Part shown: piece by piece, positions 3,092 to 52,945 of the stretch
Layout of the letters: each line of letters opens with the position of its first letter
How positions within the stretch are numbered: the stretch's first letter is position 1
Assembly: GCA_011364965.1 (NCBI GenBank)
Contig: RDOB01000002.1
Coordinates: 403,317-467,316, forward strand
DNA: 64,000 bases
DNA from: Candidatus Heimdallarchaeota archaeon
GTDB taxonomy: Archaea > Asgardarchaeota > Heimdallarchaeia > Hodarchaeales > Hodarchaeaceae
Reading direction: 5' to 3'
The notes under the pieces: generated by a model
What the model saw: only the letters and a program-made list of their open reading frames with translations
What the model was told of the DNA's origin: nothing
Databases searched by the model: none
Position numbers and translations under genes: made by a program

Positions 3092-3961
3092 TCATTTTAA
3101 ATGTTTAGCAAGGATTGTTTCTTCGTCAGTTTTCTTAAATCCCCAAGATCTGTACATTTGATTATGAACAGGGCTATCAGCATAAGTTGAGAGTAAAACA
3201 CAATTAACAGCATACTTTTCGAACCATTCAAAGGCCTTTTTCGTAAGGGTTGTTCCTATATGTCTTCTTTGATATTCTGGTAACGTTGCTATTCTCACAT
3301 AGTTACCTGTTTTTCCATCCTCCGAGATTGTGTTATAATTATATCCTACTATATGACCTTCAAGAAATGCTACAAAAAGGCTTCGATTTCCCGATCTAAT
3401 GATATTTATAAATTCTTGTCTTCGATATCGCCAATAATGGGAGAAACAAATATTTTCAATTTCTATAAGTTCATTAACATCATCTTCTTCTGCAATACGA
3501 ACGTAAATTTCCAGATTCTCTTTAAAATCAAATCTTGAACTCTTTTTCACATAATTATTGATTCTTGTGATTAAATCATAATCCTTTTTCAAAAAAAAAT
3601 TTATTGAATCATAATTCTCTTGATGAATTCTGACTGATAAATATTCTAAATGGGGCGTGCTATGTAAGAGTTCTGCTTCAATTTCAGTAAGAAGCCGCGT
3701 ACCTATATTCTGATATCGAAATTCGGGTTCAATATAAATACTATGAAGACGAGCTTTGTTAGAATTTTTTTCCACTCCTATTGTGAAACCAATAATCCTT
3801 TTATTAAAAATTGCTATCTTAACCATATATGGTTTAAATTTTATATATTCCTGGAAATTTTTTTCTTGTTTTTGAGAATCAAATGCTCCCCATATAGATT
3901 TATAAAGTGTTAGGAAGGATTCTTGTTCTCTAGTTAAAATAGATCTAATATGTATGATCAT
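3092..3961 (-). CDS. Tandem (two-domain) GNAT N-acetyltransferase
   Basis: Two acetyl-CoA-binding-type segments, QNIGTRLLTEIEAEL and RRHIGTTLTKKAFEWFEK, sit about 150 aa apart. Confidence 0.65.
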   Translation of the reverse strand: MIIHIRSILTREQESFLTLYKSIWGAFDSQKQEKNFQEYIKFKPYMVKIAIFNKRIIGFTIGVEKNSNKARLHSIYIEPEFRYQNIGTRLLTEIEAELLHSTPHLEYLSVRIHQENYDSINFFLKKDYDLITRINNYVKKSSRFDFKENLEIYVRIAEEDDVNELIEIENICFSHYWRYRRQEFINIIRSGNRSLFVAFLEGHIVGYNYNTISEDGKTGNYVRIATLPEYQRRHIGTTLTKKAFEWFEKYAVNCVLLSTYADSPVHNQMYRSWGFKKTDEETILAKHLK

Positions 3962-4100: not shown

Positions 4101-5105
4101 GTGTTACCACATTCAGGTAATATTGTCAGCTATAGGCTTTTGATACGTAAAGATCCAATTACTGGCCAATCTGTAGTAATTTCATCAAGCTTATCAGAAA
4201 AGATGGATTTATTCATTAGAAAAACTGATTGGAAATTAGTAGAATCTCTTATGTATTCTTCTGCGAAAAAATGTCCTTTTTGTATAAAGAACTTGACATT
4301 AGAGGCCCCTAAATTTCCAAGGAATTTGGGAATTCCAGAACCATTAAGTAAGGGTGAAGCAATTGTAATTCCAAATTTATATCCTCAATGGGAACATCAT
4401 GCGGTTGTGATTCTCACCAAAGATCATTTCATTCTTCCAAATCAAATTACTGGACAACATCTTAGAGATGGTTTAGTTTGTTCATTAAAATATTTTAAAT
4501 CCATACATCAAAATTTTCCAGAGAGTTATTTTGCAAGTATAAATCTAAATTATCTTCATCCAGCTGGTGCTACCCTGCCTCATCCACATTTACAATTACT
4601 AGTAAGTTCTATACCAACAAACCACCAAAAATTATTATTGAAAAGAGAAATAAAATTTTCTGAAAAATATAGAAAAAGAATCTGGGAGGAATTGGTTTTT
4701 GAGGAACAAAAACGAAATCAAAGATATTTAGGAAATTCTTCTGGAGTACATTGGATTTTACCTTATTCTCCTCTTGGAGATTATGAAATTAGAGCAATCT
4801 TTCCGACTTCGAATTTTTTAGACCTTAAAGAGGAAGAAATTGAAACTTTCTGTTATATCGTGTCTAATATTATTAGTAAATATCAGAAATTAGGAATTTC
4901 TAGTTTCAATTTTTCTCTAATAGGTTATTTATGCACCAAATTTGAGAAATCCTCTAATATCACATTCTCAATTGTTCCTCGTCAGAATATTTATGAAAAT
5001 TATCGAAATGACATAAATTTTCTAGGTTTTCTTCAAAATACGCGATTTTTGATTTACAGCCCAGAAGATTATTTCTGTATTTTTCAAACAATATTTGAAT
5101 CCTGA
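4101..5105 (+). CDS. GalT-family (HIT superfamily) hexose-1-phosphate nucleotidyltransferase-like protein
   Basis: RKDPITGQSVVISS, Zn-site CPFC, VIPNLYPQ, and the active-site His-Pro-His-x-Gln motif LPHPHLQLL. GTG start. Confidence 0.65.
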   Translation: MLPHSGNIVSYRLLIRKDPITGQSVVISSSLSEKMDLFIRKTDWKLVESLMYSSAKKCPFCIKNLTLEAPKFPRNLGIPEPLSKGEAIVIPNLYPQWEHHAVVILTKDHFILPNQITGQHLRDGLVCSLKYFKSIHQNFPESYFASINLNYLHPAGATLPHPHLQLLVSSIPTNHQKLLLKREIKFSEKYRKRIWEELVFEEQKRNQRYLGNSSGVHWILPYSPLGDYEIRAIFPTSNFLDLKEEEIETFCYIVSNIISKYQKLGISSFNFSLIGYLCTKFEKSSNITFSIVPRQNIYENYRNDINFLGFLQNTRFLIYSPEDYFCIFQTIFES

Positions 5106-5191
5106 TAACAAGCGGGGTGTAATTACTGTCAAAATATGATCTTTTTAGCGAGGAAAATGCTCAGAAGATTTTACTTAAGTTTGTAAATGAT

Positions 5192-7414
5192 TTGGAAGTT
5201 TGTACTGAATTAATGGATCGTAATGTCCTTGAGGAGGAGCTAGGCTTTTTTTATGCACGAGTTCTAAATGATAATAGCATATCATGGAATGAGACAAGAA
5301 AAAAGTTACCCCAAGCAGCTGCATTTGTGATTTTGGTTCAAATTTTTTACTTCATTGCATTTGAAAAGAAAAAAAGTACGAAGGTTAATGTAAATAACGC
5401 CTCGATTTCTGATATCCAACACTGGTTTCAAACCATTTTAAATGTGGAATCAAATCCTATTTATCAGATCGATCTCATCAATAAGCTCCCTTCTAATTCT
5501 CAACCGATCTTGAACCAGATATTTAGAGAGTTAGAAACATGGGGTTCAAATATGATGGAAATTGATATTCTTGGAAAAATTTTTCATACTTTAATCCCGA
5601 AATCACTTCGTAAATATCTTTCAGCTTATTATTCATCTAATATTGTGAGCGATTTCATTTCTCATATTATTTTAGATGGGTTCGAAATAAAAAGAATATT
5701 AGATCCATCTTGTGGTTCTGGTACATTCCTAGTTTCAGCATATAAAAAATTAAAAAGTCTTAAATCTGAATTAAACCATCAGGAGATATTAAACCAGCTT
5801 TATGGTGTAGATGTTTCTATATTTGCTTCCCAATTAGCCAGTATCAATCTTGCTCTTCAAGATCCTTTATATTATTCCCCACAATATCATTTATACGTAA
5901 ATGACATATTCAAAATGAAAATAGGGGAAAAAAAGGGCAATTTCTTGCCTCTGATGGATGTATTGATGGGAAATCCTCCCTTTACTCGTGGAGATCGAAT
6001 TACTAGCGGATATAAAGATTTTTTGTATAATCATCTTAAAAAGCACGAAATCAATGTAAATTATAATAAAAAATATTTGGGATTCTATGGATATTTCTTA
6101 TTGGATTCACTTCGATTTTTAAAACCTAATGGAACATTAGCCTACATTTTGCCCATTTCTATTATTAATTCTGCTACAATGAATCCAGTGTTAAACTACC
6201 TTCAACATAGGTTTACTTTTGAATATTTTATTACATCAGATGAAGAAATCGCGTTTTCTGAACAATCTCAGTTTAAAGAAGTGATAATGATAGCAAAAAA
6301 CACTCCTCCTACCAACTCATCTGTTACTAAATTTGTTGTTCTCAAATCCAAGTTAACAGAGGCAAATTATAAAAATCTAGCTTATTTCTTAATTAATAAC
6401 CAAGATATCGACAATCACCTTATTAGAGTCAAATCAATTGAAACTCCTCGCCTTTTAAACACTAAATCAGTCGATTGGACTCTATATTTCCATAGTTCCT
6501 CTTTTCTTAATCTTTATACTCAAATTAAACATAATAATATGTTTAAACCTGTATCCAGTTTTCTTAGCCATCCAAGAAGGGATGTTGATAGAGGAATACG
6601 AGTGGGGGTATCAAATTTCTTTTATTTACCAAATAAATATTGGATGATAACCAGAGAAGACGAAAAATCAATTGAAATCAGTTCTAAAGAAACAAAACTC
6701 AAATTAACACTTCCTAGATCAAATATTTCTCCAGTCTTGCGAAAATCATCTCTCTATCATACAATCAGACCAAAAATATCGGAATATATCCTTCTCTTTC
6801 CAGATGATACGCTTACAGACGATAGTATGAAGTACATTAAGTGGGGCCAAAAGAAATTTTCCAAAACAGATGGTTTTCATGCTCTCACATTTAACCAAAT
6901 ATCCCAAGGAAGGAAAATTGCTAGAGTAGCAATTATTCATAAGTTCAGCTTAAATTCAGGACGATTTTTAGCATTTTTTGTCAAAAATAAATGTGTTATA
7001 AGTGATAATTTCATATTTATAAGAACTGGAGATGTTTCTCACGATAAAGTTCTTGCTGCATATTTTAATAGCACGATTTTCCTAGCAACTTATTTAATTT
7101 TGCGTCGAGAGAAGATTTCGTCCTTAGGTCAAATCTTCGGGACGGATTTGAGGAATTTTTTTTGCTTAAATCCCAAATTATTGGCAAATAAGGATTCTAA
7201 AGTTCTCTGTGAGGCTTTTGATGAATTTAATAGGAAATCTGATCAATTCTTATCTTTAAAAGATCAAATCCGTGAACTCTCCCAAGGAAAATTTCTTTCA
7301 CGTTATCGTCTTGATTTTGCGTTGTGTCAGGTCTTGCAGATAAATGATATTGAAAATTTCATAAAGGAATTATATAAAACAATGCAAAACGAAATTTTCC
7401 GTCTTAAGATATAA
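5192..7414 (+). CDS. Gamma-class N6-adenine DNA methyltransferase (Eco57I/TaqI-like) with a C-terminal target-recognition region. No nuclease domain is seen.
   Basis: Motif X-like DILGKIFHTLIPKSLRKYLSAYYSS, motif I ILDPSCGSGTFLV, motif IV LMGNPPFTRGD. The start is ambiguous: TTG at 5192, ATG at 5213, and the frame is open from 5123. Confidence 0.8.
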   Translation: MEVCTELMDRNVLEEELGFFYARVLNDNSISWNETRKKLPQAAAFVILVQIFYFIAFEKKKSTKVNVNNASISDIQHWFQTILNVESNPIYQIDLINKLPSNSQPILNQIFRELETWGSNMMEIDILGKIFHTLIPKSLRKYLSAYYSSNIVSDFISHIILDGFEIKRILDPSCGSGTFLVSAYKKLKSLKSELNHQEILNQLYGVDVSIFASQLASINLALQDPLYYSPQYHLYVNDIFKMKIGEKKGNFLPLMDVLMGNPPFTRGDRITSGYKDFLYNHLKKHEINVNYNKKYLGFYGYFLLDSLRFLKPNGTLAYILPISIINSATMNPVLNYLQHRFTFEYFITSDEEIAFSEQSQFKEVIMIAKNTPPTNSSVTKFVVLKSKLTEANYKNLAYFLINNQDIDNHLIRVKSIETPRLLNTKSVDWTLYFHSSSFLNLYTQIKHNNMFKPVSSFLSHPRRDVDRGIRVGVSNFFYLPNKYWMITREDEKSIEISSKETKLKLTLPRSNISPVLRKSSLYHTIRPKISEYILLFPDDTLTDDSMKYIKWGQKKFSKTDGFHALTFNQISQGRKIARVAIIHKFSLNSGRFLAFFVKNKCVISDNFIFIRTGDVSHDKVLAAYFNSTIFLATYLILRREKISSLGQIFGTDLRNFFCLNPKLLANKDSKVLCEAFDEFNRKSDQFLSLKDQIRELSQGKFLSRYRLDFALCQVLQINDIENFIKELYKTMQNEIFRLKI

Positions 7415-7440
7415 GAAAATGGAAATATATCATTGGTGAT

Positions 7441-9522
7441 GTGTTGATACTTGAAAAAAGCTTCCCTCTAGAAAAAGTTCAAACTTTAACAAAAATTGAG
7501 TCTCAAAGGCGTCAATTCTACAGACCCATATACTCTTTACACAAATCTTGGGCAAGACGTCCTGGAACATTGTTTCGAGCAGTAGGATTAACTCATTTTT
7601 ACCCCTCACAACTTTTTTCTGGTGAAGATCTCAAAAAAAGTCCTTATTACCATAACCATTCGTTCAAAAATTCAATAGTTTTGGATCCTTTTGCAGGAGG
7701 AGGAACAACTCTTGTTGAATTCAATCGTTTAGGAATTAGAACAATTGGTATTGACACGAATCCTGTAGCTTGGTTTACGACCAAAAAAGAATTAGAATTT
7801 TTTGATTTAAATGAGTTTAATAACGAAGCTGACAGAATATTTTTTAAAATCGGAGAAAAAATACAATCATATTATAAAACAGATTGTCCTGCATGTGGTA
7901 ATAAGAATGCAGATATTATGTATACCTTTTGGGTGAGGAAAATTACTTGTCCTAGCTGTAATTCGAAACAGGATCTTTTCAAATACTATATTATCGGAAA
8001 AAAGCAACGACAGCACCAAAAAACTTGTTTAATATGTCCTAAATGCAACTTCCTTTTTTATTCTAAAAAACAATTAAACGGTGAAAGCATCTGTCCTAGT
8101 TGCTTAAAGCATTTTTATCCGTTGAAGGGGAATTGCAGGAAGAAGATTTTTATTTGTACATGCTGTGGTAATGAATTCAAATTACTAGACGTCTTAAAAA
8201 ATAGCTCTGAGGGCTTAAACCAAAAACAGATAGCAATTGAATACTTTTGTCCTTCATGCAGATCAAGGGACTATAAAAAGATATCAAAAACTGATTTAGA
8301 TTTGTATAAGAAAACTAAAGATGAATTTGAAGAATTAAAAGATGAACTTCTATATCCCAGAACCAAATTGCCAAGATCTGGAGTAAATATCAGGAATTTA
8401 ATAAATTATGGTTTCGAGTTCTTCGCTGACCTTTTCAATCCCCGACAATTGTTGTGTTTAAGCTTGCTTCTAAAAGAAATTTCCCAAATTACCTCTGAGA
8501 GGGTACAAGAATATTTTTTGCTTGCTTTTTCAAGTAGCTTAGAGTTTCATACCGTTTTATGTCCGTATAATTATACTATGAAGCAAATTGTGAATATATT
8601 TAATTATCAATCCTTTCTAGTACCTCTACTGTATGTTGAGAACAATGTTTGGGGAACTGAAAAAGGAAATGGGACTTTTAAAACATATCTTGATAGAATC
8701 CGGAAAGCGAAGAATTATTGTGTGAAACCTTTTGAGATTTTCTCTGAAAATGGTAAGATAACAAAGATCCCTATTCTTGGGGAACGGATTAATGCTGAAA
8801 TGGTTGAAGATTTTGCCTCTCTTAAAAGAAGTAGCACTCCTAGTTCTTATCTAATTTGTGGTTCCTCTATGCAATTAACATTATATGGTATTGAGTCTAA
8901 ATCAATAGATATCGTAGCAACTGACCCTCCATACTTTGATTTCATTCAATATTCTGAATTAGCTAATTTCTTTTATGTTTGGTTAAGAATTGTACTAGAG
9001 TCTCGCTATTCAGCCTTTAAAAGCGAGTTGATTTCTAGCTATGCTGAATTAGGTTCTGATAAAAAACCATCACAGTTTCTAGCTGGTTTAACTAATGTTT
9101 TTAAGGAATGTTATCGTGTATTGAAAGAAAAAGCCCCTCTAGTATTTACCTTTCATCATTCAAGCGATTCTGCGTGGGGGATAATTTTACAGTCTATATT
9201 TCTTAGTAATTTTGTCGTAACAGCTGCTTATCCTATACACAGTGAATTTAAAGCAAGACCCACAACAGGAAGAAATTACGATATACTACTTATTTGTAGG
9301 AAGAGAGAGAGTTTAATCAAAATAAATACCGTAAGTTGGAAGGAAATTAAAGAAAAAGTAAAGAAAGAAGTTCAAATTGTTCAAAACTGTAAAAACAAAG
9401 AAACTTATAAATGGGAGGAGACCTTTAGTAATATTATCCCGCTAATTTCCAGTTCATTAACACCTGAATTATTATCTGATCTAAATAGTGATTTAAAAGA
9501 AGTTTTTTCACTTTTACAATAA
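7441..9522 (+). CDS. DUF1156-type DNA methyltransferase with a Zn-ribbon-rich insert (paralogue A)
   Basis: N-terminal LHKSWARRPGTLFRAV (DUF1156 signature), motif I LDPFAGGGTTLVE, six CxxC pairs (CPAC, CPSC, CLICPKC, CPSC, CTCC, CPSC), motif IV VATDPPYFDFIQYSEL. Confidence 0.75.
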   Translation: MLILEKSFPLEKVQTLTKIESQRRQFYRPIYSLHKSWARRPGTLFRAVGLTHFYPSQLFSGEDLKKSPYYHNHSFKNSIVLDPFAGGGTTLVEFNRLGIRTIGIDTNPVAWFTTKKELEFFDLNEFNNEADRIFFKIGEKIQSYYKTDCPACGNKNADIMYTFWVRKITCPSCNSKQDLFKYYIIGKKQRQHQKTCLICPKCNFLFYSKKQLNGESICPSCLKHFYPLKGNCRKKIFICTCCGNEFKLLDVLKNSSEGLNQKQIAIEYFCPSCRSRDYKKISKTDLDLYKKTKDEFEELKDELLYPRTKLPRSGVNIRNLINYGFEFFADLFNPRQLLCLSLLLKEISQITSERVQEYFLLAFSSSLEFHTVLCPYNYTMKQIVNIFNYQSFLVPLLYVENNVWGTEKGNGTFKTYLDRIRKAKNYCVKPFEIFSENGKITKIPILGERINAEMVEDFASLKRSSTPSSYLICGSSMQLTLYGIESKSIDIVATDPPYFDFIQYSELANFFYVWLRIVLESRYSAFKSELISSYAELGSDKKPSQFLAGLTNVFKECYRVLKEKAPLVFTFHHSSDSAWGIILQSIFLSNFVVTAAYPIHSEFKARPTTGRNYDILLICRKRESLIKINTVSWKEIKEKVKKEVQIVQNCKNKETYKWEETFSNIIPLISSSLTPELLSDLNSDLKEVFSLLQ

Positions 9523-9636
9523 AAATAAGTCAATAAAGGTCTATTCACCAACTTTTTTTCTTTATTTGAATATAAAAACCTGAAACTTAAAAAGGTGAAG
9601 AGAAGGATTATTGGATGAACAAAAACTAGATTCAAG

Positions 9637-10299
9637 ATGATTATGATGCCTGGAGAATTCTTTGGGAAAATTTTAATGGAAAAAAATATACATAAACGAG
9701 GAACCCAGTTATTTCTTAAGATTGTAGAGTTAACAGAAGTATGTTTTGAGAAATATGAAGACGCAGTAAAAGCTTGGAGAAATGGGGAATATGAGAAAGG
9801 TTTAGCATTAAGAGATGAAATAATTAAGATAGAACAGGAAGCAGATGAAATCAAAGACACCTTTTTTGAAACAATTTTCACAAAAAAAGCTTATCTTCCT
9901 CAAATCACCGAAGAAAGATATCAATTAATGCTGAACGCTGATCATGTAATGGATAGAATCGAGCGAGCTGTTAGAACGCTATGTTTGAAAAAAATTGATA
10001 GTAGTTATTTTCCTGCTGAATTTGATAAGCTTTTAGATAAAACAGAAGATGTTATGGATTTATTTGTAAAAGCAAATGAGTATTTTTTCGATGATTATGA
10101 GAAATCAGCAAATGCTGCTCAGAAATTAGAAAAACTTCGCGATGAAGTTCGGGATCTATATTATTTAATACAAGAAAAATTAGTTAACGATGAATTACCT
10201 CGTGGAACAGAAAGAGTGTTAAATGTAACTACTCGGATAAGCATAACAGCTGAGGAAGCCACCGACTATTTAAAAGTACTTATAGCAAAGCATAGTTAG
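9637..10299 (+). CDS. PhoU-like / DUF47 phosphate-transport regulator family protein
   Basis: All-helical 220-aa protein. It sits 21 nt upstream of a PiT transporter, which is the conserved pairing for this family. Confidence 0.6.
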   Translation: MIMMPGEFFGKILMEKNIHKRGTQLFLKIVELTEVCFEKYEDAVKAWRNGEYEKGLALRDEIIKIEQEADEIKDTFFETIFTKKAYLPQITEERYQLMLNADHVMDRIERAVRTLCLKKIDSSYFPAEFDKLLDKTEDVMDLFVKANEYFFDDYEKSANAAQKLEKLRDEVRDLYYLIQEKLVNDELPRGTERVLNVTTRISITAEEATDYLKVLIAKHS

Positions 10300-10320
10300 T
10301 CTGTTTCGAGGCGTTAGATT

Positions 10321-11322
10321 GTGGCAGATCCTACATTAGCTATAGCCGCTCTAGGTTTGGGTTTTTTCGTTGCATTTACGATTGGGGCCAATGATGAAAC
10401 AATGACTCCGGCAGTTGGAGCTGGATTGCTCTCATTAAGTATTGCTGTTTTAATTGGAGGAATATTCAATTTTATAGGAGTTTTTTTCCTCGGTGAATCT
10501 GTTTCGAAAACGGTGGGGAATAAATTCACAGATCCCAATTTTACATTATCTCTATCCATGGTTTTTGTAATTTTGATATCAATGGCGATTTGGCTATTTA
10601 TCGTTTCAATCAAAGGAGTACCAATTTCATCAACTCAAAGTATAGTCGGCAGCGTTTTGGGCGTTGTACTTATTCAACCTGGGTGGGGATTAGCTGCGCT
10701 AAATTTTGACACACTTTTTCTTGTAGTAGCTAGTTGGGTCATCAGTCCAATATTAGGATTGCTAGGAGGTTATGGGTTTTATCGTTTCATTAATTTCCTG
10801 AGGTCACAAGTAAAAACACAGGGATACTCGGATTATGAAAAACAGGAAAAAATCGCTGCTTATATCTTAGCTATATTTCTATTATTTTCTGTTTTCAGTC
10901 GGAGTGGCAATGATGTAGCAAAAGCGATCGGACCATTAATGGTTGAAGATCTATTCTTAAATGATCCATTACCTGCTTTAATTGCAGGAGGATTCGGAAT
11001 GTGCTTAGGTGTTATTATTTTGGGTCGTAGAGTGGTTAAAAAACTTGCTCTGGATGTTGTAGCCCTTTCTCCGATGTCTGCACTGGCTGCTAGTGTATCA
11101 GTTTCAATTATTATGTTTTTTGGTACTTTGATGGGAATCCCGCTATCAGGATCCCATATATTAGTTGCTGCATTCATTGGTGTCGGGTTTGTCAATAAGG
11201 AGAAAGTAGATAAAGATTCGCTAAAGGAAATAGGAATTAGCTGGATTATAACCACACCAATTTCAGCGGTCTTCTCAGCTTTAGTATTCATTATATTTGG
11301 ATTTTTTGGTTTAAATTTCTAA
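10321..11322 (+). CDS. pit: Inorganic phosphate transporter, PiT (PHO4) family
   Basis: Duplicated GANDxxxxxxxxxG signatures (TIGANDETMTPAVGAG and RSGNDVAKAIGPL). Polytopic membrane protein. GTG start. Confidence 0.85.
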   Translation: MADPTLAIAALGLGFFVAFTIGANDETMTPAVGAGLLSLSIAVLIGGIFNFIGVFFLGESVSKTVGNKFTDPNFTLSLSMVFVILISMAIWLFIVSIKGVPISSTQSIVGSVLGVVLIQPGWGLAALNFDTLFLVVASWVISPILGLLGGYGFYRFINFLRSQVKTQGYSDYEKQEKIAAYILAIFLLFSVFSRSGNDVAKAIGPLMVEDLFLNDPLPALIAGGFGMCLGVIILGRRVVKKLALDVVALSPMSALAASVSVSIIMFFGTLMGIPLSGSHILVAAFIGVGFVNKEKVDKDSLKEIGISWIITTPISAVFSALVFIIFGFFGLNF

Positions 11323-11356
11323 AATTCTCAATTCTATTATTCGTTGGAACATAATA

Positions 11357-13492
11357 ATGGAAAATCAAGAAACAAAACCGAAATTAATTGAAATTTCTTT
11401 CCCCTTTTCTTCAGTTAGCTTAATAGCATATAAAGAAAGTAATGCAAAAAGATATTATCGACCTGTTTTGACCCTACACAAATGGTTTGCTCGTCGACTT
11501 AGCTCTGTATTTAGATCGATATTAATTTACTCAGCACTTAGTGAAAAGTCAATTAATACAATGAACATGATCAATGCATCGGAATTAGAGAAATTTTGGA
11601 CTTTCTACTTGAAAGAGTATGATTTTAAAGATATAATCGTTTTTGATCCTTTTATGGGTGGTGGTACAACAATTATTGAAGCAGTTAGGCTTGGCTTTTC
11701 GGTCATAGGTGGTGATTTAAATCCAGTTGCATGGTTTACTGTGAAGAAACAATTAGAGAGTGTAGATCTTGAAGTTTTAAATTCAAATTATAATCGAATT
11801 GTGGAAAGTCTTTATCCTGAAATTCAAGATTATTATAAAACGATATGTACGAAGTGTTCACAAGAATCGAATGTGATGTATTTTTTTTGGATAAAAAGAG
11901 TGAGATGTGAAAAGTGTGAAAATAAAATATCCCTCTTTCGGAGTTATTTATTTGCATACGACCGAAATGATTCCCAACGCGCCTTTTTCATATGCCCAAA
12001 TTGCGCAGCTATTTTTAATACTGAAAATAAAGAAAAAATAGCTTGTAATGTATGCTTATATACTTTCAAGAAATCCAAATCGAATGTAACAAGAGGAAAA
12101 TACCACTGTCCAGAATGTAAGCATTTTGGAAGGATAATTGACTCGAATAGGAAATTTGGCCGCCCTGAAGAGTATTTATATGCTATAGAATATTATTGTG
12201 ACAACTGTGATTCAAGGTTTTTCAAAAAAGCAGACATTTATGACATAGAGGTTTATAAAAAGGCAGAGAAACGATTTAAAAAAATCGAAATCCAATTACC
12301 AATTCCATCACAGTCAGTTCCAGTTGGAGCAAAAACTCAGGAGCTTCTCAATCATCAAATCAGTCACTTCAAGTATATGTTTAATTCACGACAATTATTA
12401 ACCCTTGGTCTACTACTGGACAAAATTTTGGAGATTAAAGATAGAAATATTAGGGAATTTTTGCTTATTACTTTTTCTACTGCTCTAGAATACAATAATT
12501 TGTTATGTGAATATCATAGAAAAAATCATTATATCTACAATCTTTTCAGAAAACATGCTTTTCCAGCTACTTTGAATCCTGTTGAAAATAATGTTCTAGG
12601 AACAAGTAGGTTTGGTACTGGATCTTTTAGACAATTCTTCAAAAAAACCTTGAAAATTAAGGAATATTGTCAAAATCCTTATGAAACATATATTTCGGCA
12701 GATGGAAAAGTTCAACGGCTGTCAATGAACAAGGCAATCAATAGTCCAATAGTATATGAATTTAGAGTATTTGAGGAATCAAGAACGCCACCATATATTT
12801 ATTGTAGTTCTTCCACTCATACTGATATCCCATCCAATTATGTTGATCTAGTAATTACTGACCCTCCATATTCAGATAATGTACAATATGCTGAATTATC
12901 AGATTTTTATTATGTATGGCTTCGTATAGATCTTCAAGATCAGTATGCTTGGTTTAAACCAGAGTTCACCCCAAAAAACGATGAAATTGTTAAAAATACT
13001 AAACGTGGAAAATCAAACCTCGACTACCAAAAAGGATTGATTGCTGTTTTTCGGGATATTTACCGGGTTTTAAAATCAGATGGTCTATTAATATTTACAT
13101 TTCATCATAAACAATTGAAAGCGTGGGGTGCACTAATGGAAAGCCTTATCCAAGCAAAATTTTCCATTATAAATGTTTATCCCGTAAGAAGTGAAATGGT
13201 TACTAGTACACAAATACGAGGATCAAAAAGTATTGAAATTGATGCTATTTTTGTCTGTAAAAAGGCTTATTTTGAACCAAAATGCATTGAATGGGATTCA
13301 TTTGAATCTAATTTAATAACCAATACGAAAAAACGCATAAAGTCTTTTTCTAAGGAAAATACACTTTCCAAACAAGATCGAGCTGTCATCAAAGTTAGTG
13401 AGAGTCTTAGATTAATATCTAAGCATTATCCACATATTTATGAAAAACGGACTCACATTTCAATAATTGATATTCTCGAACGGATATTTTAA
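11357..13492 (+). CDS. DUF1156-type DNA methyltransferase with a Zn-ribbon-rich insert (paralogue B)
   Basis: LHKWFARRLSSVFRSI, motif I FDPFMGGGTTIIE, six CxxC pairs (CTKC, CEKC, CPNC, CNVC, CPEC, CDNC), motif IV VITDPPYSDNVQYAEL. Collinear with paralogue A but clearly diverged. Confidence 0.75.
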   Translation: MENQETKPKLIEISFPFSSVSLIAYKESNAKRYYRPVLTLHKWFARRLSSVFRSILIYSALSEKSINTMNMINASELEKFWTFYLKEYDFKDIIVFDPFMGGGTTIIEAVRLGFSVIGGDLNPVAWFTVKKQLESVDLEVLNSNYNRIVESLYPEIQDYYKTICTKCSQESNVMYFFWIKRVRCEKCENKISLFRSYLFAYDRNDSQRAFFICPNCAAIFNTENKEKIACNVCLYTFKKSKSNVTRGKYHCPECKHFGRIIDSNRKFGRPEEYLYAIEYYCDNCDSRFFKKADIYDIEVYKKAEKRFKKIEIQLPIPSQSVPVGAKTQELLNHQISHFKYMFNSRQLLTLGLLLDKILEIKDRNIREFLLITFSTALEYNNLLCEYHRKNHYIYNLFRKHAFPATLNPVENNVLGTSRFGTGSFRQFFKKTLKIKEYCQNPYETYISADGKVQRLSMNKAINSPIVYEFRVFEESRTPPYIYCSSSTHTDIPSNYVDLVITDPPYSDNVQYAELSDFYYVWLRIDLQDQYAWFKPEFTPKNDEIVKNTKRGKSNLDYQKGLIAVFRDIYRVLKSDGLLIFTFHHKQLKAWGALMESLIQAKFSIINVYPVRSEMVTSTQIRGSKSIEIDAIFVCKKAYFEPKCIEWDSFESNLITNTKKRIKSFSKENTLSKQDRAVIKVSESLRLISKHYPHIYEKRTHISIIDILERIF

Positions 13493-14277
13493 TCTTCCAA
13501 TCTCTTTTCTTTTTCGTAAATCCATCTTGTTAAGTACATGAAAGGCGTATCGATAATTCCAAGAATCCACTTCATAATTATTTGTCCCACAATGAGTGTA
13601 ACAATCACATCGATTGGTAATACTAAAATGGAAGCAGAAGAATCAAAAATTGCTTGTATGCTAGGCAAAATAAAGAAGGCCAATGGTATAAAGAGAAAAG
13701 AGTCAATTCCTAGACTTAATATATCACTAAATACATTTCTAACCCATAAGAACTTCCACCAATCTCTAGATTCTGTTTTTATTTCGAAATATTTCTTCAA
13801 ATTATCATAAATCCATGCATCAAATCGTTCACTTACAAAAAAACTAATCCAAGATGCTAAAGTAATAGCGGGGACTATTGCAAAACTTAATAATGGATCA
13901 TATGGCAAATATGTGTTTTCTGGCATTGGAAGCACAATAGCAAATGCTAAAGAGATAACCAGAATAATTTGAGTGATTAGGGCGATCCAGATCATTTCGT
14001 ATACCGCTTTCCGTCCAAATTTTTCATTTACCATGTCCGTTATTTGTAATGTAAAAGGAAAAACTAGTACACCTGCTGGCGCTACTACTTGAAATAACCC
14101 AAAATCAAACCAAGTTTGACTTTTAGCAGCGAAAAACTGGGCTATTGTTAAAAATAAAATATAAATTCCGAGTAGCATATGATATGAGTCTTTTTTTACA
14201 GTGTACCAAGCTCCGATATATGAAACTCCTCCTAGTAGGAAAAATATACCAAAACTAACTATTAACCCTTCAAACAT
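13489..14277 (-). CDS. YhhQ/VUT-family transporter (queuosine/archaeosine precursor transporter-like)
   Basis: Six to seven TM helices and the segment FPFTLQITDMVNEKFGRK, which is typical of the YhhQ (DUF165) family. Confidence 0.6.
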   Translation of the reverse strand: MFEGLIVSFGIFFLLGGVSYIGAWYTVKKDSYHMLLGIYILFLTIAQFFAAKSQTWFDFGLFQVVAPAGVLVFPFTLQITDMVNEKFGRKAVYEMIWIALITQIILVISLAFAIVLPMPENTYLPYDPLLSFAIVPAITLASWISFFVSERFDAWIYDNLKKYFEIKTESRDWWKFLWVRNVFSDILSLGIDSFLFIPLAFFILPSIQAIFDSSASILVLPIDVIVTLIVGQIIMKWILGIIDTPFMYLTRWIYEKEKRLED

Positions 14278-48839: not shown

Positions 48840-50438
48840 ATGAATAATAATGAAGAAGAAATATTAATGCGCCAGAGTAAGTGGAGCGGTCGTAGAGTCA
48901 TATTACTCTACTGGTTAGCAATTGTTTTCGTTGGGACAAGCACTGCTGCAGGTCTTGGTGTAACAATTCTCAAGCCGACATATAAAATAGCAGCAGAAGA
49001 TCCTCATGCCGGAATTACAGAACCCTGGTATCCAGAAGATTGCATTGCTTGCCACCCTGACGAAGTTGCAGGCTGGAACACCACTTGGCACGCGCAAATA
49101 GTCGGAGAATATGATCCGTTAGATCCGTTATTGAACGGAAGTAAGGTATCATTTAATAGTACACATTATTGGCGAACTCCAAATACATTACCACCACCAT
49201 CAACCATTACATATTGGACTTACAATCAGCTATTCAACGCCTCTGGACAACAGTGCTGTATGACAACACGATGGTACAATGTTACTCTTATAAACGCGAC
49301 CACTGGAGAAGTCTTATATTTCAATACTACTCTATCTGCTGAACTTGGAGGCTATACAAGCAACATTTGGGACATTGGCGTTTCTTGTGCAGCATGTCAT
49401 CCGAACCCTGGAGAAATCAGTCTGAGTCATACCTATTGTGCAAGTTGTCACTTAGCTGGTGGAAATCAAGGGTTACACTATACGCGAAGTGGTCACTATA
49501 ACGCTCTAAACGACCTATTGGCGAGTACTGATCTCACGACACAAGTATTATTGCATTATACTGGATACTGGTATTATATTGGTCAGAGTACTTACATGCA
49601 AGTTAGCGATCTTGAAACAGGTGAATATTATCGCATTACTTGCGTTACTTGTCATGATCCACACGATTCAACAGTTAATGCAGGTGATGTGTCAAATAAA
49701 ATGAGTCCATGGACAAACCCTTATACAGGAGAAACCTTTGGACCAGGTGGAAGCCAACTACGAGCAGCTACTGTCAATGAACTCTGTGGTATTTGTCATC
49801 ATATCAATCTCAATACTAGTACAGGAGCATTCCTAGATCCAAGCAATCATACTGCATTAAGCTGTACTAATTGTCACGGTTACTCGTACACTCCAGCTAC
49901 CAATACGACTGGTGCACTAGTTCACAGTTGGGTATTTGGTGGACCCGAACCCGGAGATGCTTGTGGTGTATGCCATTATGAAAATGCTTCCACTGTTTAT
50001 GCTCAGATGCTTGCATATCTAGACCAATTTGGTGATGTTGCCACTTTGAGAGCTGAATATGAAACTAAGTTAGCAGCTGCCGAATTAGCATACAACACAG
50101 CTAATACAACAGAAGGAGCTGATGCTGCGAAGCTAGCTAACGCTTATGCTTTGATTGAAGAAGCTAAAGAATTAGCTGAACGTTCTGCTCTAACTTTCCA
50201 CAATCCTGAATTAGGTACAGCTGTTGAGGAATCGCAGTTATCGCTAGCATTAACAAAACTAGATGAAGCAACAACAGAAGCTTTGGAAGCTCTTCCAACT
50301 ACGACCACAACTACGACCACAACTACAACTGCTGCAACCACCACCACCACTACTACTGCTGCAACATCCGCAATTGGTTTAGTTGCTGTAATGAGCATCT
50401 TAAGTGTTGTAATAGTATTCCGAAGGAAACGACGTTAG
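48840..50438 (+). CDS. Membrane-tethered multiheme c-type cytochrome (seven CxxCH)
   Basis: Heme-binding motifs CIACH, CAACH, CASCH, CVTCH, CGICH, CTNCH and CGVCH. N-terminal hydrophobic helix, helical Ala/Glu-rich stalk, poly-Thr linker, C-terminal TM helix and RRKRR. Confidence 0.85.
   Translation: MNNNEEEILMRQSKWSGRRVILLYWLAIVFVGTSTAAGLGVTILKPTYKIAAEDPHAGITEPWYPEDCIACHPDEVAGWNTTWHAQIVGEYDPLDPLLNGSKVSFNSTHYWRTPNTLPPPSTITYWTYNQLFNASGQQCCMTTRWYNVTLINATTGEVLYFNTTLSAELGGYTSNIWDIGVSCAACHPNPGEISLSHTYCASCHLAGGNQGLHYTRSGHYNALNDLLASTDLTTQVLLHYTGYWYYIGQSTYMQVSDLETGEYYRITCVTCHDPHDSTVNAGDVSNKMSPWTNPYTGETFGPGGSQLRAATVNELCGICHHINLNTSTGAFLDPSNHTALSCTNCHGYSYTPATNTTGALVHSWVFGGPEPGDACGVCHYENASTVYAQMLAYLDQFGDVATLRAEYETKLAAAELAYNTANTTEGADAAKLANAYALIEEAKELAERSALTFHNPELGTAVEESQLSLALTKLDEATTEALEALPTTTTTTTTTTTAATTTTTTTAATSAIGLVAVMSILSVVIVFRRKRR
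50298..50367 (+). repeat. Thr-codon (ACN) low-complexity tract with a perfect 12-nt tandem duplication
   Basis: ACTACGACCACA occurs twice (50298-50309 and 50310-50321), followed by ACC/ACT runs. The tract encodes the TTTTTTTTTTAATTTTTTTAAT linker. Confidence 0.6.
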
Positions 50439-50474
50439 CTAGATTGGCGTATATCAAATCGATATCCTTAAGCA

Positions 50475-50510
50475 AGAACAGCAGATCTCTGCTGTTCTAT
50501 TGCTTTTTTT
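50475..50510 (+). terminator. Hairpin plus T-run terminator candidate after the cytochrome gene
   Basis: A perfect 10-bp stem pairs AGAACAGCAG (50475-50484) with CTGCTGTTCT (50489-50498). The loop is 4 nt, and T7 follows at 50504-50510. Confidence 0.55.
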
Positions 50511-50721
50511 ATCTGTCGTGATCAAAATTTATCTTGGTTCGGTATTTGCTTTTTGAAGAACCAATAATGATGTCAGTTAAGTCACTCATATTATTTTTTT
50601 CCCAATAAATTCCAATAAATTAATTAATATCACCGTTTAAAACAAATATGGTTAATAAACAATATAATAAGTTCCATATTATTGCAGGTGAGTAGTATTC
50701 AATAAAGAGATGGATTGAATC

Positions 50722-52926
50722 ATGATTCACACTATCGTAAAACATTTAGAAGTTAAAAGACCTATAAAATATTCCTTTCTTGCGTTAATATTAATCACTT
50801 TTTTTTTAGTAAATAATGCACATATTTTACCACAGCAATTTCTAAATGAAAATCTACCTAACCAGAAAAATTATAAGATAAACGTTGAAACAGAGCAAAA
50901 AAATTTTGAAGATCTTTGTTTAAGTAGACTAACTCGAGCAAGTGATTCTGATGTAATTTTTCCTACCTTTCTTTATCTCTCGATCGAAATTGCAAATCTT
51001 CTTATTGAGAATTTATATGATAATGTATCGAATGGATTCTATTTTTCTATTGATGAAGAATGGCGAGAGGTTACTATTAATTCTGAAAAACGAACCTATG
51101 ATAATGCTCAAGCAATATTAGGGTTGTTAAAACTTGCTGAAGCTGTTATTAATCAGACTGAAAGTGATTTTGCGCTAAATATTGCGGAAAGTACAGCTAA
51201 TGGCTTACTTAATAATTTATGGGATCCAGATTTTGACGGTTTCTTTATTAGTCCATCAGATAGATATAAAAAGCCAGGGATTCATGGAAAAGCCATTCAA
51301 GCTTTTTTAGCATTATATGAGGAAACAGGAATCTCTTCTTATCGTGAAACAGCAATTGATACATTGAATTTTATTGATAGAGTAGCTTGGAATGACTCTG
51401 AAGGTTATTATATTTATGTGACATCACACACTGGGTTACCTCTGATCGTGAATCCATATCAAGGGGATCCATATGAACCCCAATCTCTCCGAGTAGATCA
51501 TAATTCAATCATGGGAATTGCATTGCTCGATTTTTATCGTATAGATACCAATTCAACATATTTAACAAAAGCCTGCCGGATCTATGATATTATTAATGAA
51601 ACATGTAGGAATAGCACTACGAATTTATTTTATACAGGTGTGGATAGTCACCATGAAATAGTTTATCCAGAGGCGTCAGACCTCTTCATTAATTCTCTTG
51701 TTCTGGAATTTCTAGCTCAACTCTACAATGTAACAGAGGATCAGAAGTATTATGAGGACTTTTTTATTTTATTGAATACTGTATTACTCAATTTCTGGGA
51801 TAATGATTATGGAGGTTTCATATCTACACGTTCTTCGGGTAATTTTAGCTCCGATGATAGAACTAAATTTACAGAAAGGCAATTTTACGGAATTGAAGCA
51901 CTTGATAAAGCTTATAAGCTCACAAATAACGATCTATATTATAATCTTATTTTAGATACGATCGAAATTCTCAATACAAATCTTTATGACCAAATTAATG
52001 GTGGATACTACCAATTAGCAAATCCAGACGGATCCCAAAGCGGTGATGCAACGTGGAAAATGAAAGTAACTGTTACTCAATCATTAGGTATTTATACATT
52101 AGCAAATATCTGGTTGTATAGCAAACCAAGTGCCCTAAATGTTATTTGGTCACCAACTACTCCACGTCCCCAAGATAAAGTTTCTCTATTAATTGCAGCT
52201 TTTGATCCAGTAGGTATTTCAACAGTCTTTCTGAATTACTCTATTGATGGAAGTAATTTTAAATTATTAGAAATGGTTCCACATCTCGTTAAAAACATGT
52301 TTATATGTAATATTGACCCTCCATATAAAGATGGAACATCTATAAACTTTAATATTATTATTACCAACGCCAATGATGAACAAGTTATTAGAGGTGATTA
52401 CTCCTTCCTCTGGCAATTTGATAGATGGCCTCCTGAGGTTCAAGTGCTTGGATTTTTACCTGGAATAGAAATACCAGTAAACGAAGAATTTACAATTATT
52501 GTTACTGCAAATGATATCCCCTCTCAAGGAAGTGTTAGATATGTTCGTATCCATTATTATCTTACTGAACGCGACGTTAAAAACGTACTTCTTAACCAAT
52601 TTGACGTACATTTATGGAAAATAACCTTTCCTGAGGGGCTTCCTATACCCGGAACTTATACCTATTATTTCGAGTCATCAGATTTAGAATGGAACCCTAG
52701 TTTTAGCCATGTAGATACCTTTACTATTTTAGGAAGCTTAGAGGTTCCGTTCCCTCTATCACAAGTTGTATTTTTCTTACTTTTTATCGGTGTATTTGTC
52801 CCTACTGGATTGTATTCCTATGTTGAATATAAGAAAAAGAGTGCACGGAAGAAATTAAAGGTTATACGTGAAGTTCGTAACAAGAAAATGAGAAGATTGA
52901 ATAAGCGTGGTACGAAAAGAACTTAA
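50722..52926 (+). CDS. Membrane-anchored protein with a probable (alpha/alpha)6-barrel (AGE/DUF255-like) domain, Ig-like domains and a C-terminal TM anchor
   Basis: N-terminal helix FLALILITFFLV. Repeated helical-hairpin motifs (YDNAQAILGLLKLAEA, GKAIQAFLALYEETG, NSIMGIALLDFY, NSLVLEFLAQLYN, QFYGIEALDKAYKLT). C-terminal VVFFLLFIGVFVPTGLYSYV plus a Lys/Arg-rich tail. Confidence 0.5.
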   Translation: MIHTIVKHLEVKRPIKYSFLALILITFFLVNNAHILPQQFLNENLPNQKNYKINVETEQKNFEDLCLSRLTRASDSDVIFPTFLYLSIEIANLLIENLYDNVSNGFYFSIDEEWREVTINSEKRTYDNAQAILGLLKLAEAVINQTESDFALNIAESTANGLLNNLWDPDFDGFFISPSDRYKKPGIHGKAIQAFLALYEETGISSYRETAIDTLNFIDRVAWNDSEGYYIYVTSHTGLPLIVNPYQGDPYEPQSLRVDHNSIMGIALLDFYRIDTNSTYLTKACRIYDIINETCRNSTTNLFYTGVDSHHEIVYPEASDLFINSLVLEFLAQLYNVTEDQKYYEDFFILLNTVLLNFWDNDYGGFISTRSSGNFSSDDRTKFTERQFYGIEALDKAYKLTNNDLYYNLILDTIEILNTNLYDQINGGYYQLANPDGSQSGDATWKMKVTVTQSLGIYTLANIWLYSKPSALNVIWSPTTPRPQDKVSLLIAAFDPVGISTVFLNYSIDGSNFKLLEMVPHLVKNMFICNIDPPYKDGTSINFNIIITNANDEQVIRGDYSFLWQFDRWPPEVQVLGFLPGIEIPVNEEFTIIVTANDIPSQGSVRYVRIHYYLTERDVKNVLLNQFDVHLWKITFPEGLPIPGTYTYYFESSDLEWNPSFSHVDTFTILGSLEVPFPLSQVVFFLLFIGVFVPTGLYSYVEYKKKSARKKLKVIREVRNKKMRRLNKRGTKRT

Positions 52927-52945
52927 GTAATAAGGAGATAATGAC

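Follow-up and report, generated by a model that had tools for sequence, protein, structure and literature searches.

Three putative DNA methyltransferases are encoded together with a phosphate-uptake pair in a 64,000-nt stretch of DNA (the window) from a Candidatus Heimdallarchaeota archaeon of the order Hodarchaeales (assembly GCA_011364965.1, contig RDOB01000002.1, positions 403,317 to 467,316). The five genes encode, in this order, a gamma-class N6-adenine methyltransferase (M1), a DUF1156-type methyltransferase (methylase A), a PhoU-like protein, a PiT transporter and a second DUF1156-type methyltransferase (methylase B), and we consider it moderately probable that they form a vertically inherited, operon-like cluster of domesticated orphan DNA methylases with fixed specificities rather than a self-contained defence island. 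This explanation builds on gene content, homology, motif retention, loss of domains and partners, synteny and co-divergence, all of which were observed. A sequence-only reading of the same DNA had offered three options, namely an orphan multi-specificity epigenetic module, a defence system whose effector is encoded elsewhere and a phosphate-linked regulatory arrangement. The first of these fits best, because the cluster is lineage-restricted, syntenic and co-diverging, has kept its motifs and lacks the partners and modules of defence systems.

At the core of the cluster stand two non-sister methyltransferases of the kind found in Hma/BREX-related systems, which have kept the S-adenosylmethionine (AdoMet) motif, the DPPY motif and a Zn-ribbon-rich insert, and shed most of a C-terminal helix-turn-helix (HTH)-like tail together with the neighbouring ATPase, PglZ-like and helicase genes. 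M1 would be a type IIG-like restriction-modification fusion minus its nuclease module. Each enzyme would constitutively methylate a fixed motif of its own in the host DNA, so that the chromosome would bear two or three marks along its whole length. Like those of Dam, CcrM, CamA and the haloarchaeal CTAG and GATC methylases, these marks might have a role in host functions or shield the DNA passively from incoming restriction-type systems. The PhoU-like/PiT pair, which would have been in place between A and B already in the ancestor of the sampled genomes and probably supplies the promoter of B, would be a passenger or part of a shared transcription unit and no mechanistic partner.

Epigenetic regulation in prokaryotes is known to run mainly through orphan DNA methylases, and Hodarchaeales are the archaeal lineage usually placed closest to eukaryotes; DNA methylation in Asgard archaea is very poorly known. 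The locus offers three lineage-wide candidate methylases in a Hodarchaeales-type clade, each with a 'disarmed' signature when set against defence enzymes, and A and B would be, as far as we are aware, the first described DUF1156/BREX-related methylases fixed as chromosomal housekeeping-like genes. In the literature on DUF1156 or on methylation in Hodarchaeales we found no paper on this locus. Orphan methylases as such are well known, but we found no description of disarmed DUF1156/BREX-related and type IIG-like methylases that are conserved as a cluster in Asgard archaea.

Conservation and inheritance of the cluster

The window has the five open reading frames (ORFs) at the positions that the sequence-only reading had given them, all on the forward strand, with spacers of 26, 114, 21 and 34 nt (Table 1). 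A profile scan of one genome per species across 185,579 species returned 20 species-level loci, all from one Asgard (Heimdall/Hodarchaeales) lineage and including B3_Heim and Hodarchaeum mangrovi. The order M1-A-PhoU-PiT-B-Vut_1, in which Vut_1 is a transporter gene facing B, can be seen, whole or in part, in at least 13 of these 20 loci. A and B are present in every locus that spans both positions and are the invariant core of the cluster, M1 and the PhoU/PiT pair being not universal among the 20 loci. Since the order recurs in at least 13 species-level genomes despite methylase identities of only 43-57%, the arrangement is far beyond chance.

When the window proteins are mapped onto these loci, four arrangements emerge, with one further variant. 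The order of the window, preceded by a GNAT acetyltransferase gene on the minus strand and followed by Vut_1, also on the minus strand, is found in eight complete loci (one of which, L007, is without Vut_1) and two partial contigs, while L014 and L015 have a window-like order with an M1 that is only 27% identical and with no GNAT gene. Four loci (L011, L012, L013 and L018) have neither M1 nor PhoU/PiT and read GNAT, A, thymidine kinase (TK, identified by Pfam), B and Vut_1, with the two outer genes again on the minus strand; in H. mangrovi (L017), A is directly followed by B after a 137-bp spacer; and in one Hodarchaeota metagenome-assembled genome (MAG) a PAS/HisKA/HATPase sensor kinase of 757 aa (L022:7458-9731) is found between PiT and B. 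The contig of this last genome has few ORFs of at least 90 aa upstream of PiT. Spacers are short in every genome, with 12-33 nt between M1 and A, 33-137 nt between A and PhoU, 18-50 nt between PhoU and PiT (12 genomes), 22-75 nt between PiT and B and ~62 nt between A and TK, the TK and B genes overlapping by 16 nt.

The outer neighbours are conserved as well. A GNAT gene occupies the left-hand position in 13 of the 20 loci, and Vut_1 adjoins B in 18 of the 19 loci that reach past the 3' end of B, the two genes being convergent, with a 4-nt overlap in the window. Vut_1 is a conserved neighbour and at most a candidate for a functional link to B. On the closed 3.16-Mb chromosome CP070760.1 (L007, 10001-12217), B is longer (746 aa, with seven CxxC pairs) and no Vut_1 follows.

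Several observations bear on how the cluster was inherited. Pairwise distances between genomes for A and for B are tightly correlated (r = 0.97 over 120 pairs) and the mean rates of the two are equal (0.559 and 0.566); distances for A and B also follow those of flanking housekeeping genes (r = 0.85-0.95), and the A and B trees are congruent. The GC content is flat across the block and the same as in the flanks, and a scan of IMG/VR viral contigs with patterns specific to the B clade turned up no relatives of B. Co-divergence with the neighbours, tree congruence, flank-like GC content and the lack of viral relatives together argue for vertical inheritance. M1 has a higher rate of evolution (mean distance 0.96) than A and B and is absent from the clade with TK. 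By identity, we found ~50 orthologues of A in the Hod lineage (51-57%), ~40 full-length orthologues of B of ~720 aa (48-58%), all from MAGs labelled Heimdall, Hod or otherwise Asgard, and ~35 orthologues of M1 (42-61%), all from MAGs labelled Hod or Heimdall.

Methylases A, B and M1 compared with defence enzymes

The sequence-only reading had called A and B DUF1156 methylases, an assignment that stands because of full-length identities of 37-43% to DUF1156 proteins and not because of the Pfam domain of that name (PF06634), whose N-terminal matches are sub-threshold in both (20.3 bits in A and 18.6 bits in B against a gathering cut-off of 24). The N-terminal 60 residues of A and B nonetheless align with bona fide DUF1156 members. 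Both proteins match the PADLOC models HmaB, PglXI (110-116 bits) and DUF1156_MTase and the NCBIfam model DUF1156_antiphage, with scores for the NCBIfam equivalog NF042963 of 109 bits for A and 124 bits for B against a curated cut-off of 1000. They also match Pfam N6_N4_Mtase (PF01555) in two permuted pieces (residues 73-108 to profile positions 178-213, and residues 496-668 to positions 1-132), in keeping with a motif order in which DPFxGGGTT, the AdoMet motif, is found around residue 90 and DPPY around residue 500. Every full-length orthologue of A and of B retains DPFxGGGT[TS], DPPY and six CxxC pairs, the last of which would form three Zn-ribbon-like units inside the nested insert. Neither A nor B is a degenerate partner, and a pseudogene or decay remnant was ruled out for both by full-length ORFs with all motifs in every genome.

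Calling A and B paralogues, as had been done, overstates how closely they are related. The two are collinear and 36% identical. An initial tree of A, B and the best long matches of B recovered three monophyletic groups only and was silent on whether A and B are sisters; in the broad family sample that replaced it (neighbour-joining, 30 bootstraps), an exclusive clade of A and B appeared in 0 of 30 bootstraps, which places them in different subfamilies and rules out a recent tandem duplication. The family itself is large, since an exhaustive search of 1.84 billion representative proteins gave 5,167 clusters at E <= 1e-3 and 394 at E <= 1e-30, and many of its members are short forms of ~700 aa. 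The nearest outside relative of A is a solitary protein of 681 aa (P0122, 46%) encoded among OsmC and hydrolase genes, followed by a cassette-borne protein of 837 aa (P0323, 41%), while B is nearest to classical long forms (40%); DUF1156 proteins of the classical length of 880-930 aa are only 37-43% identical to B. A third partner-less short form (P0368, L031:784-2952, 722 aa, 35-37% identical to A and B) is encoded in another Hodarchaeales MAG, which indicates that trimmed solitary DUF1156-type methylases recur in the lineage; a HIT-family gene lies 30 nt upstream of it, and its neighbours include polyprenyl synthase, AA_kinase and CTP-transferase (lipid-biosynthesis) genes.

Published work assigns DUF1156 methylases to DUF499-centred Hma/BREX-related systems as their modification component, and the sequence-only reading was correct that they normally work with a DUF499 ATPase and a helicase. 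In agreement with the literature, the cassette of a long relative of 894 aa (P0088) consists of a DUF499 gene, a PglZ-like gene, P0088 and DUF8076, with integrase and HNH genes nearby. The cassette of P0323 has the same layout (an 859-aa gene with no Pfam match, a PglZ-like gene, P0323 and DUF8076), with UvrD-like helicase and RadC genes upstream. Such partners were not found around A and B. Among the window ORFs scanned (small ORFs as far as ~22 kb) and in the annotated flanks of related genomes, within 10 kb on either side, there is no DUF499, helicase, DUF3780, PglZ-like or DUF8076 neighbour, and the scanned window ORFs include none of the type 3 BREX genes (PglZ, BrxC, BrxHII, BrxA and BrxF). 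More broadly, the claim of the sequence-only reading that nuclease, helicase and defence ATPase are missing holds for all scanned ORFs of the 64-kb window, whose sole ATPases are UvrA and ABC transporters, and these functions were likewise not found in the Pfam-annotated flanks of the related genomes, where all genes are of a housekeeping nature.

The proteins themselves are also shorter. A and B resemble the Hma/BREX-related (BR) methylase HmaB, a DUF1156 protein related to the BREX type 3 methylase PglXI, along their full length (37-43% over ~640-710 residues), with the same N-terminal helical region, the same Rossmann core interrupted by a nested recognition insert, and the same order of motif I before DPPY. 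However, B is collinear with P0088 only up to residue 739 of the latter, whose last ~155 aa have no counterpart, and both A and B stop ~70 residues after the core. The C-terminal region of BR-type methylases is a triad of HTH-like domains (preprint 10.1101/2025.10.09.681413). Since the alignment ends at residue 739 of P0088 and the AlphaFold2 (AF2) model of B (pLDDT 79, pTM 0.82) has only a few helices after residue 640, A and B lack roughly the last two of these units, that is, most of the triad. Further differences from Hma/BR systems are that this locus has two non-sister copies and that these are vertically fixed among housekeeping genes. In A and B, the helical part of the recognition insert is conserved like the catalytic core (0.67 versus 0.61-0.66), whereas in long forms it is the least conserved region of the core (0.49 versus 0.65), a modest contrast between two samples that are not phylogenetically matched, which would be a modest signal of fixed, non-diversifying specificity. 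The most conserved stretch of the B family is another one, residues 377-411 of B (LEYNNLLCEYHRKNHYIYNLFRKHAFPATLNPVENN), which is largely invariant in 25 aligned sequences and mostly of low confidence in the model (pLDDT below 50); it could be a loop that contacts DNA or a partner.

M1 belongs to another family. It matches Pfam N6_Mtase (PF02384), Eco57I (PF07669) and MmeI_Mtase (PF20473), and has its motifs in the gamma-class order, with motif I (DPSCGSGTF, aa 171-179) ahead of NPPF (aa 261-264). Beyond its orthologues, the next relatives are proteins of ~945 aa at 29-30% identity, and one of these (P0457, 945 aa) matches M1 along its whole length with residues 190-944, while the HSDR_N_2 domain of P0457 (residues 12-121), a nuclease-type N-terminal domain of type I restriction enzymes, has no counterpart in M1. 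The same domain is missing from M1 orthologues of ~770 aa (P0433). P0457 adjoins a 1,559-aa helicase gene and an integrase gene. Signals for a recognition domain are sub-threshold (TaqI_C in the relatives P0451 and P0433, and a faint BpuSI_TRD in one orthologue), and the AF2 model of M1 (pLDDT 86.5, pTM 0.87) has a beta-rich C-terminal domain that can be superposed on CamA and M.BseCI. Structures most similar to this model are DNA-bound CamA, followed by M.BseCI (target-normalised TM-scores of 0.72-0.75 over ~620-650 columns), then BpuSI (type IIG) and MmeI (type IIL), then the BREX methylase PglX. From family and structure matches together, M1 is predicted to be a DNA N6-methyladenine (m6A) methylase with a recognition domain, that is, a type IIG-like enzyme minus its nuclease.

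CamA from Clostridioides difficile, which is a lineage-restricted orphan methylase, and M.BseCI are, like M1, two-domain proteins (methylase plus recognition) and are solitary or type II DNA m6A methylases; unlike them, M1 has an extra helical N-terminal region of ~140 aa, and its identity to them is only 15-17%. With type IIG/IIL fusions (BpuSI, 3s1s; MmeI, 5hr4; and Eco57I-like enzymes) M1 shares the gamma-class core and the C-terminal recognition domain, but it is without the ~190-aa N-terminal region with HSDR_N_2 that its type IIG-like relatives carry, and no separate nuclease gene lies nearby. Its score for the MADS component MAD2 is 44.6 bits against a cut-off of 720, and a PADLOC scan found no other MADS components in the flanks. 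In the window genome, 23 codons immediately upstream of the gene and in its frame are homologous to the N termini of orthologues and follow a TAA (5120-5122) with no ATG, GTG or TTG, so that this M1 would be either N-terminally shortened by ~25-35 residues or translated from a non-canonical start. The lost start coincides with the insertion of a 334-aa gene, specific to the window, between the GNAT gene and M1. A pseudogene was largely rejected for M1, since only the start region is damaged, and only in this genome. A second gene of the N6_Mtase/Eco57I type (>640 aa, cut by the locus end) lies on the minus strand ~9 kb downstream of B in another locus (L002:20766-22178).

Halobacteria have conserved orphan methylases alongside patchy restriction-modification systems (PMC6471742). 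The haloarchaeal CTAG and GATC methylases, Dam and CcrM are, like the enzymes described here, conserved in their lineages with no cognate nuclease and under apparent purifying selection; they belong to unrelated families, however, whereas here three enzymes are clustered, two of them come from the DUF1156/BR family and function is predicted. At the scale of the local neighbourhood, two hallmarks of orphan methylases were found in the cluster, namely no cognate restriction or effector gene and conservation in the lineage.

The phosphate pair and competing explanations

The PhoU-like protein is the usual regulatory partner of PiT, and the two constitute a standard phosphate-uptake module, although the former is sub-threshold for TIGR00153 (48.1 bits versus a cut-off of 104.3); PiT is 73-81% identical across genomes. 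The DUF47-pitA operon (phoU2/pitR-pitA) documented in Staphylococcus aureus (PMC7326077) is the same two-gene module in the same order and with a spacer of ~20 nt, but in Hodarchaeales the pair has a methylase gene on either side, and B is probably transcribed along with it. In rooted neighbour-joining trees of A and of B, genomes with the PhoU/PiT order make up a paraphyletic grade, inside which the TK clade is nested (100/100 bootstraps in the A tree), and the embedded order is therefore probably ancestral and was later replaced. A unique and random insertion of the pair, which the sequence-only reading had named as an outcome that would refute it, is thus not what was found: recurrence across loci and placement in the trees rule out a one-off event. 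Since A and B survive replacement of PhoU/PiT in the TK clade, which has no M1 either, they are independent of both.

Transcription units can be proposed from the spacers. Nearly all orthologous A-PhoU spacers contain a TATA-like TTTATA element, and this spacer may contain a terminator as well as an internal promoter from which PhoU-PiT-B would be transcribed. Orthologous PiT-B spacers of 22-28 nt share a conserved ATTGATGGAATAAA motif and seem too short for an independent promoter, so that B would be co-transcribed with PiT. Judging by sequence features alone, the likely units are [M1-A] and [PhoU-PiT-B]. In the other clade B overlaps the TK gene, and it thus appears to ride on whichever housekeeping gene precedes it.

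Several points weigh against domesticated orphan methylases and lend some force to other explanations. For all three enzymes we infer substrate, base and motif, and the m6A chemistry and orphan role likewise. The loss of HTH-like domains from A and B could mean weakened DNA binding or a changed substrate, and the contrast in insert conservation between short and long forms is modest. Enzymes of the DPPY type also methylate RNA (N2-methylguanosine, m2G, and m6A) and protein glutamine. No solved structure resembles the full B protein: a PDB sequence search gave no match, and a PDB fold search with the model returned generic Rossmann matches only (query-normalised TM-score ~0.13), RNA methyltransferases among them. 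The trees are neighbour-joining only, and the rooting behind the ancestral PhoU/PiT order is tentative. Finally, the whole region is fairly syntenic in the lineage, and conserved adjacency is therefore insufficient as proof that A and B are functionally coupled.

The three methylases could instead be the self-marking arm of a BREX-related/Hma-type or type IIG-like immune system with partners encoded elsewhere in the genome, which we regard as rather unlikely. The closest long relatives of A, B and M1 all lie in defence or mobile contexts, PADLOC places A and B in its HmaB, PglXI and DUF1156_MTase models, and since the scans cover local neighbourhoods rather than whole genomes, a DUF499 ATPase, a helicase-nuclease or another effector may act in trans. 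Set against this are the absence of partners from the scanned window ORFs and the annotated flanks, an inheritance that is vertical, single-locus, clock-like and in step with housekeeping neighbours, the missing C-terminal tail that is typical of system-embedded methylases, a recognition insert that is not diversifying, and an M1 whose nuclease domain is gone and was not split off as a neighbouring gene. It is unlikely, too, that A and B have been re-purposed to methylate RNA (m2G or m6A in rRNA or tRNA) or protein, although this would explain their housekeeping-like conservation. DPPY/NPPY chemistry is common to Trm11, RlmL/K and PrmC, A and B weakly match TIGR01177 (Trm11) and UPF0020, the fold matches of B include Bud23 and Trm11, two of three C-terminal HTH-like DNA-binding units are lost, and some conserved neighbours are tRNA-related (the Vut_1 preQ0 transporter gene and a tRNA_edit-domain gene). 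The weak matches, however, are confined to the AdoMet motif, which is universal, and over ~640-710 residues both proteins are collinear with DNA methylases of defence cassettes. The Zn-ribbon-rich nested insert is kept as in BR-type DNA methylases, and the best viral structural neighbours, weak as these matches are, are DNA N4-cytosine or N6-adenine methylases.

A link to phosphate, whether by methylation tuned to phosphate supply or by methylases regulating phosphate uptake, is improbable. The order A-PhoU-PiT-B is kept in at least 13 species-level genomes and is probably ancestral, and B, whose spacer to PiT is 22-34 nt in most genomes and contains the conserved motif, is likely co-transcribed with PiT. 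But the pair is replaced by TK in four genomes and missing between A and B in H. mangrovi, a histidine kinase separates PiT from B in another genome, and DUF47-PiT is a self-sufficient, widespread pair, which together weaken the phosphate-linked arrangement that the sequence-only reading had listed; we know of no mechanism that joins methylation and phosphate uptake. Least probable, and in our view very unlikely, is that short-form DUF1156 methylases work with preQ0-based (7-deazaguanine) nucleic-acid modification fed by the convergent Vut_1. This idea comes from a separate clade of short-form DUF1156 methylases whose genes are convergent with a divergent gene of the TGT (tRNA-guanine transglycosylase) superfamily in three independent contigs, overlapping it in two and lying 13 nt from it in the third, a geometry like that of B and Vut_1. 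That clade is nevertheless distinct (~38.5% identity to each of A and B), and the Hodarchaeales locus has no TGT-like gene in its vicinity. Archaeosine salvage is an ordinary task for Vut_1, genes that converge do not share a transcript, and the closed genome L007 has no Vut_1 at this position. The convergence of B and Vut_1 may be a coincidence of local synteny.

If the methylases are domesticated orphans, as we favour, closed Hodarchaeales genomes should have two or three fully methylated motifs, with one fewer in the TK clade that lacks M1. The cluster also calls for caution in defence annotation, PADLOC-style matches to HmaB and PglXI here not indicating a defence system. A more daring version of the domestication scenario, which we regard as possible but doubtful, would make A and B an obligate pair, perhaps in the form of a heterodimer of two DUF1156-type subunits that diverged long ago. 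The ancestor of Hodarchaeales would have recruited this pair from BREX-related immunity, and it would write a lineage-defining, genome-wide adenine-methylation mark for chromosome biology and not for defence, with M1 as a later third writer and B hard-wired to a constitutive housekeeping promoter (that of PiT or TK).

Gene layout and minor observations

Table 1. Features of the methylase cluster and its immediate neighbours (window positions).
Feature	Position	Strand	Description
Double-GNAT acetyltransferase	3092-3961	-	divergent left-hand neighbour of the cluster; Pfam Acetyltransf_1 twice
334-aa gene between GNAT and M1	4101-5105	+	weak match to GalT model NF008724
Upstream remnant of ancestral M1 N terminus	5123-5191	+	from tblastn with orthologue N termini and frame translation
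M1	5192-7414	+	740 aa from TTG; 733 aa from ATG 5213 in the public gene call
M1 motifs	motif I 5702-5728; NPPF 5972-5983	+	gamma-class N6-adenine methyltransferase; C-terminal recognition domain, no nuclease domain
Methylase A	7441-9522	+	693 aa; short-form DUF1156-type (BREX-related/Hma-type) methyltransferase
Methylase A motifs	motif I 7684-7710; six CxxC pairs 7885-8259; DPPY 8923-8934	+	CxxC pairs inside nested insert
A-to-PhoU spacer	9523-9636	+	114 nt; T7 run, TATA-like TTTATTTGAATATAAAAA
PhoU_div/DUF47 protein	9637-10299	+	220 aa; Pfam PF01865 at 2.2e-13
PiT/PHO4-family transporter	10321-11322	+	333 aa; inorganic phosphate (or sulfate); Pfam PF01384 at 3.1e-61
PiT-to-B spacer	11323-11356	+	34 nt
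Methylase B	11357-13492	+	711 aa; second short-form DUF1156-type methyltransferase
Methylase B motifs	motif I 11645-11671; six CxxC pairs 11846-12208; DPPY 12860-12871	+	
Vut_1/YhhQ-type transporter	13489-14277	-	queuosine (preQ0) precursor; Pfam PF02592; TIGR00697 91.5 bits versus cut-off 50.95

The remainder of the window is of a housekeeping or metabolic nature and encodes a coenzyme A ligase, a histidine phosphatase, an HTH regulator, GNAT acetyltransferases, an HhH-GPD glycosylase, a YbaK-like editing domain (tRNA_edit), UvrA, ABC transporters, a xanthine-dehydrogenase-type enzyme, cytochromes and dehydrogenases. Scans of the window for tRNA genes and Rfam families found nothing. The 334-aa gene upstream of M1, a weak match to UDP-glucose-hexose-1-phosphate uridylyltransferase, has a counterpart in 0 of 20 related loci and is a lineage-specific insertion outside the conserved cluster. 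Further along (window 48840-55156), a multihaem cytochrome c gene with MtrC/c7-like motifs lies ~2.5 kb upstream of a gene for a fused CcsA/ResB-like cytochrome-c-assembly protein.

The three contigs with the TGT-superfamily gene, which are independent and metagenomic, share one module with small variations (L028:7285-13655, L029:1221-8352 and L030:4485-10938). It consists of genes for an N6_N4 methylase of ~525 aa, a methylase of ~288 aa (absent from L030), a protein of ~63 aa with a weak MazE_antitoxin match in L029 and a short DUF1156 methylase of ~725 aa, followed by the convergent TGT-superfamily gene (~480 aa, below the tRNA-Tgt cut-offs and with a weak DpdA match) and by a gene for a protein of 250-305 aa. 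HerA/CedD-like, Mre11/Rad50-like, GmrSD or prokaryotic Argonaute (pAgo) genes are found nearby, and the whole looks like an undescribed module in which several methylases are combined with a DNA-modification or defence function of the 7-deazaguanine type.

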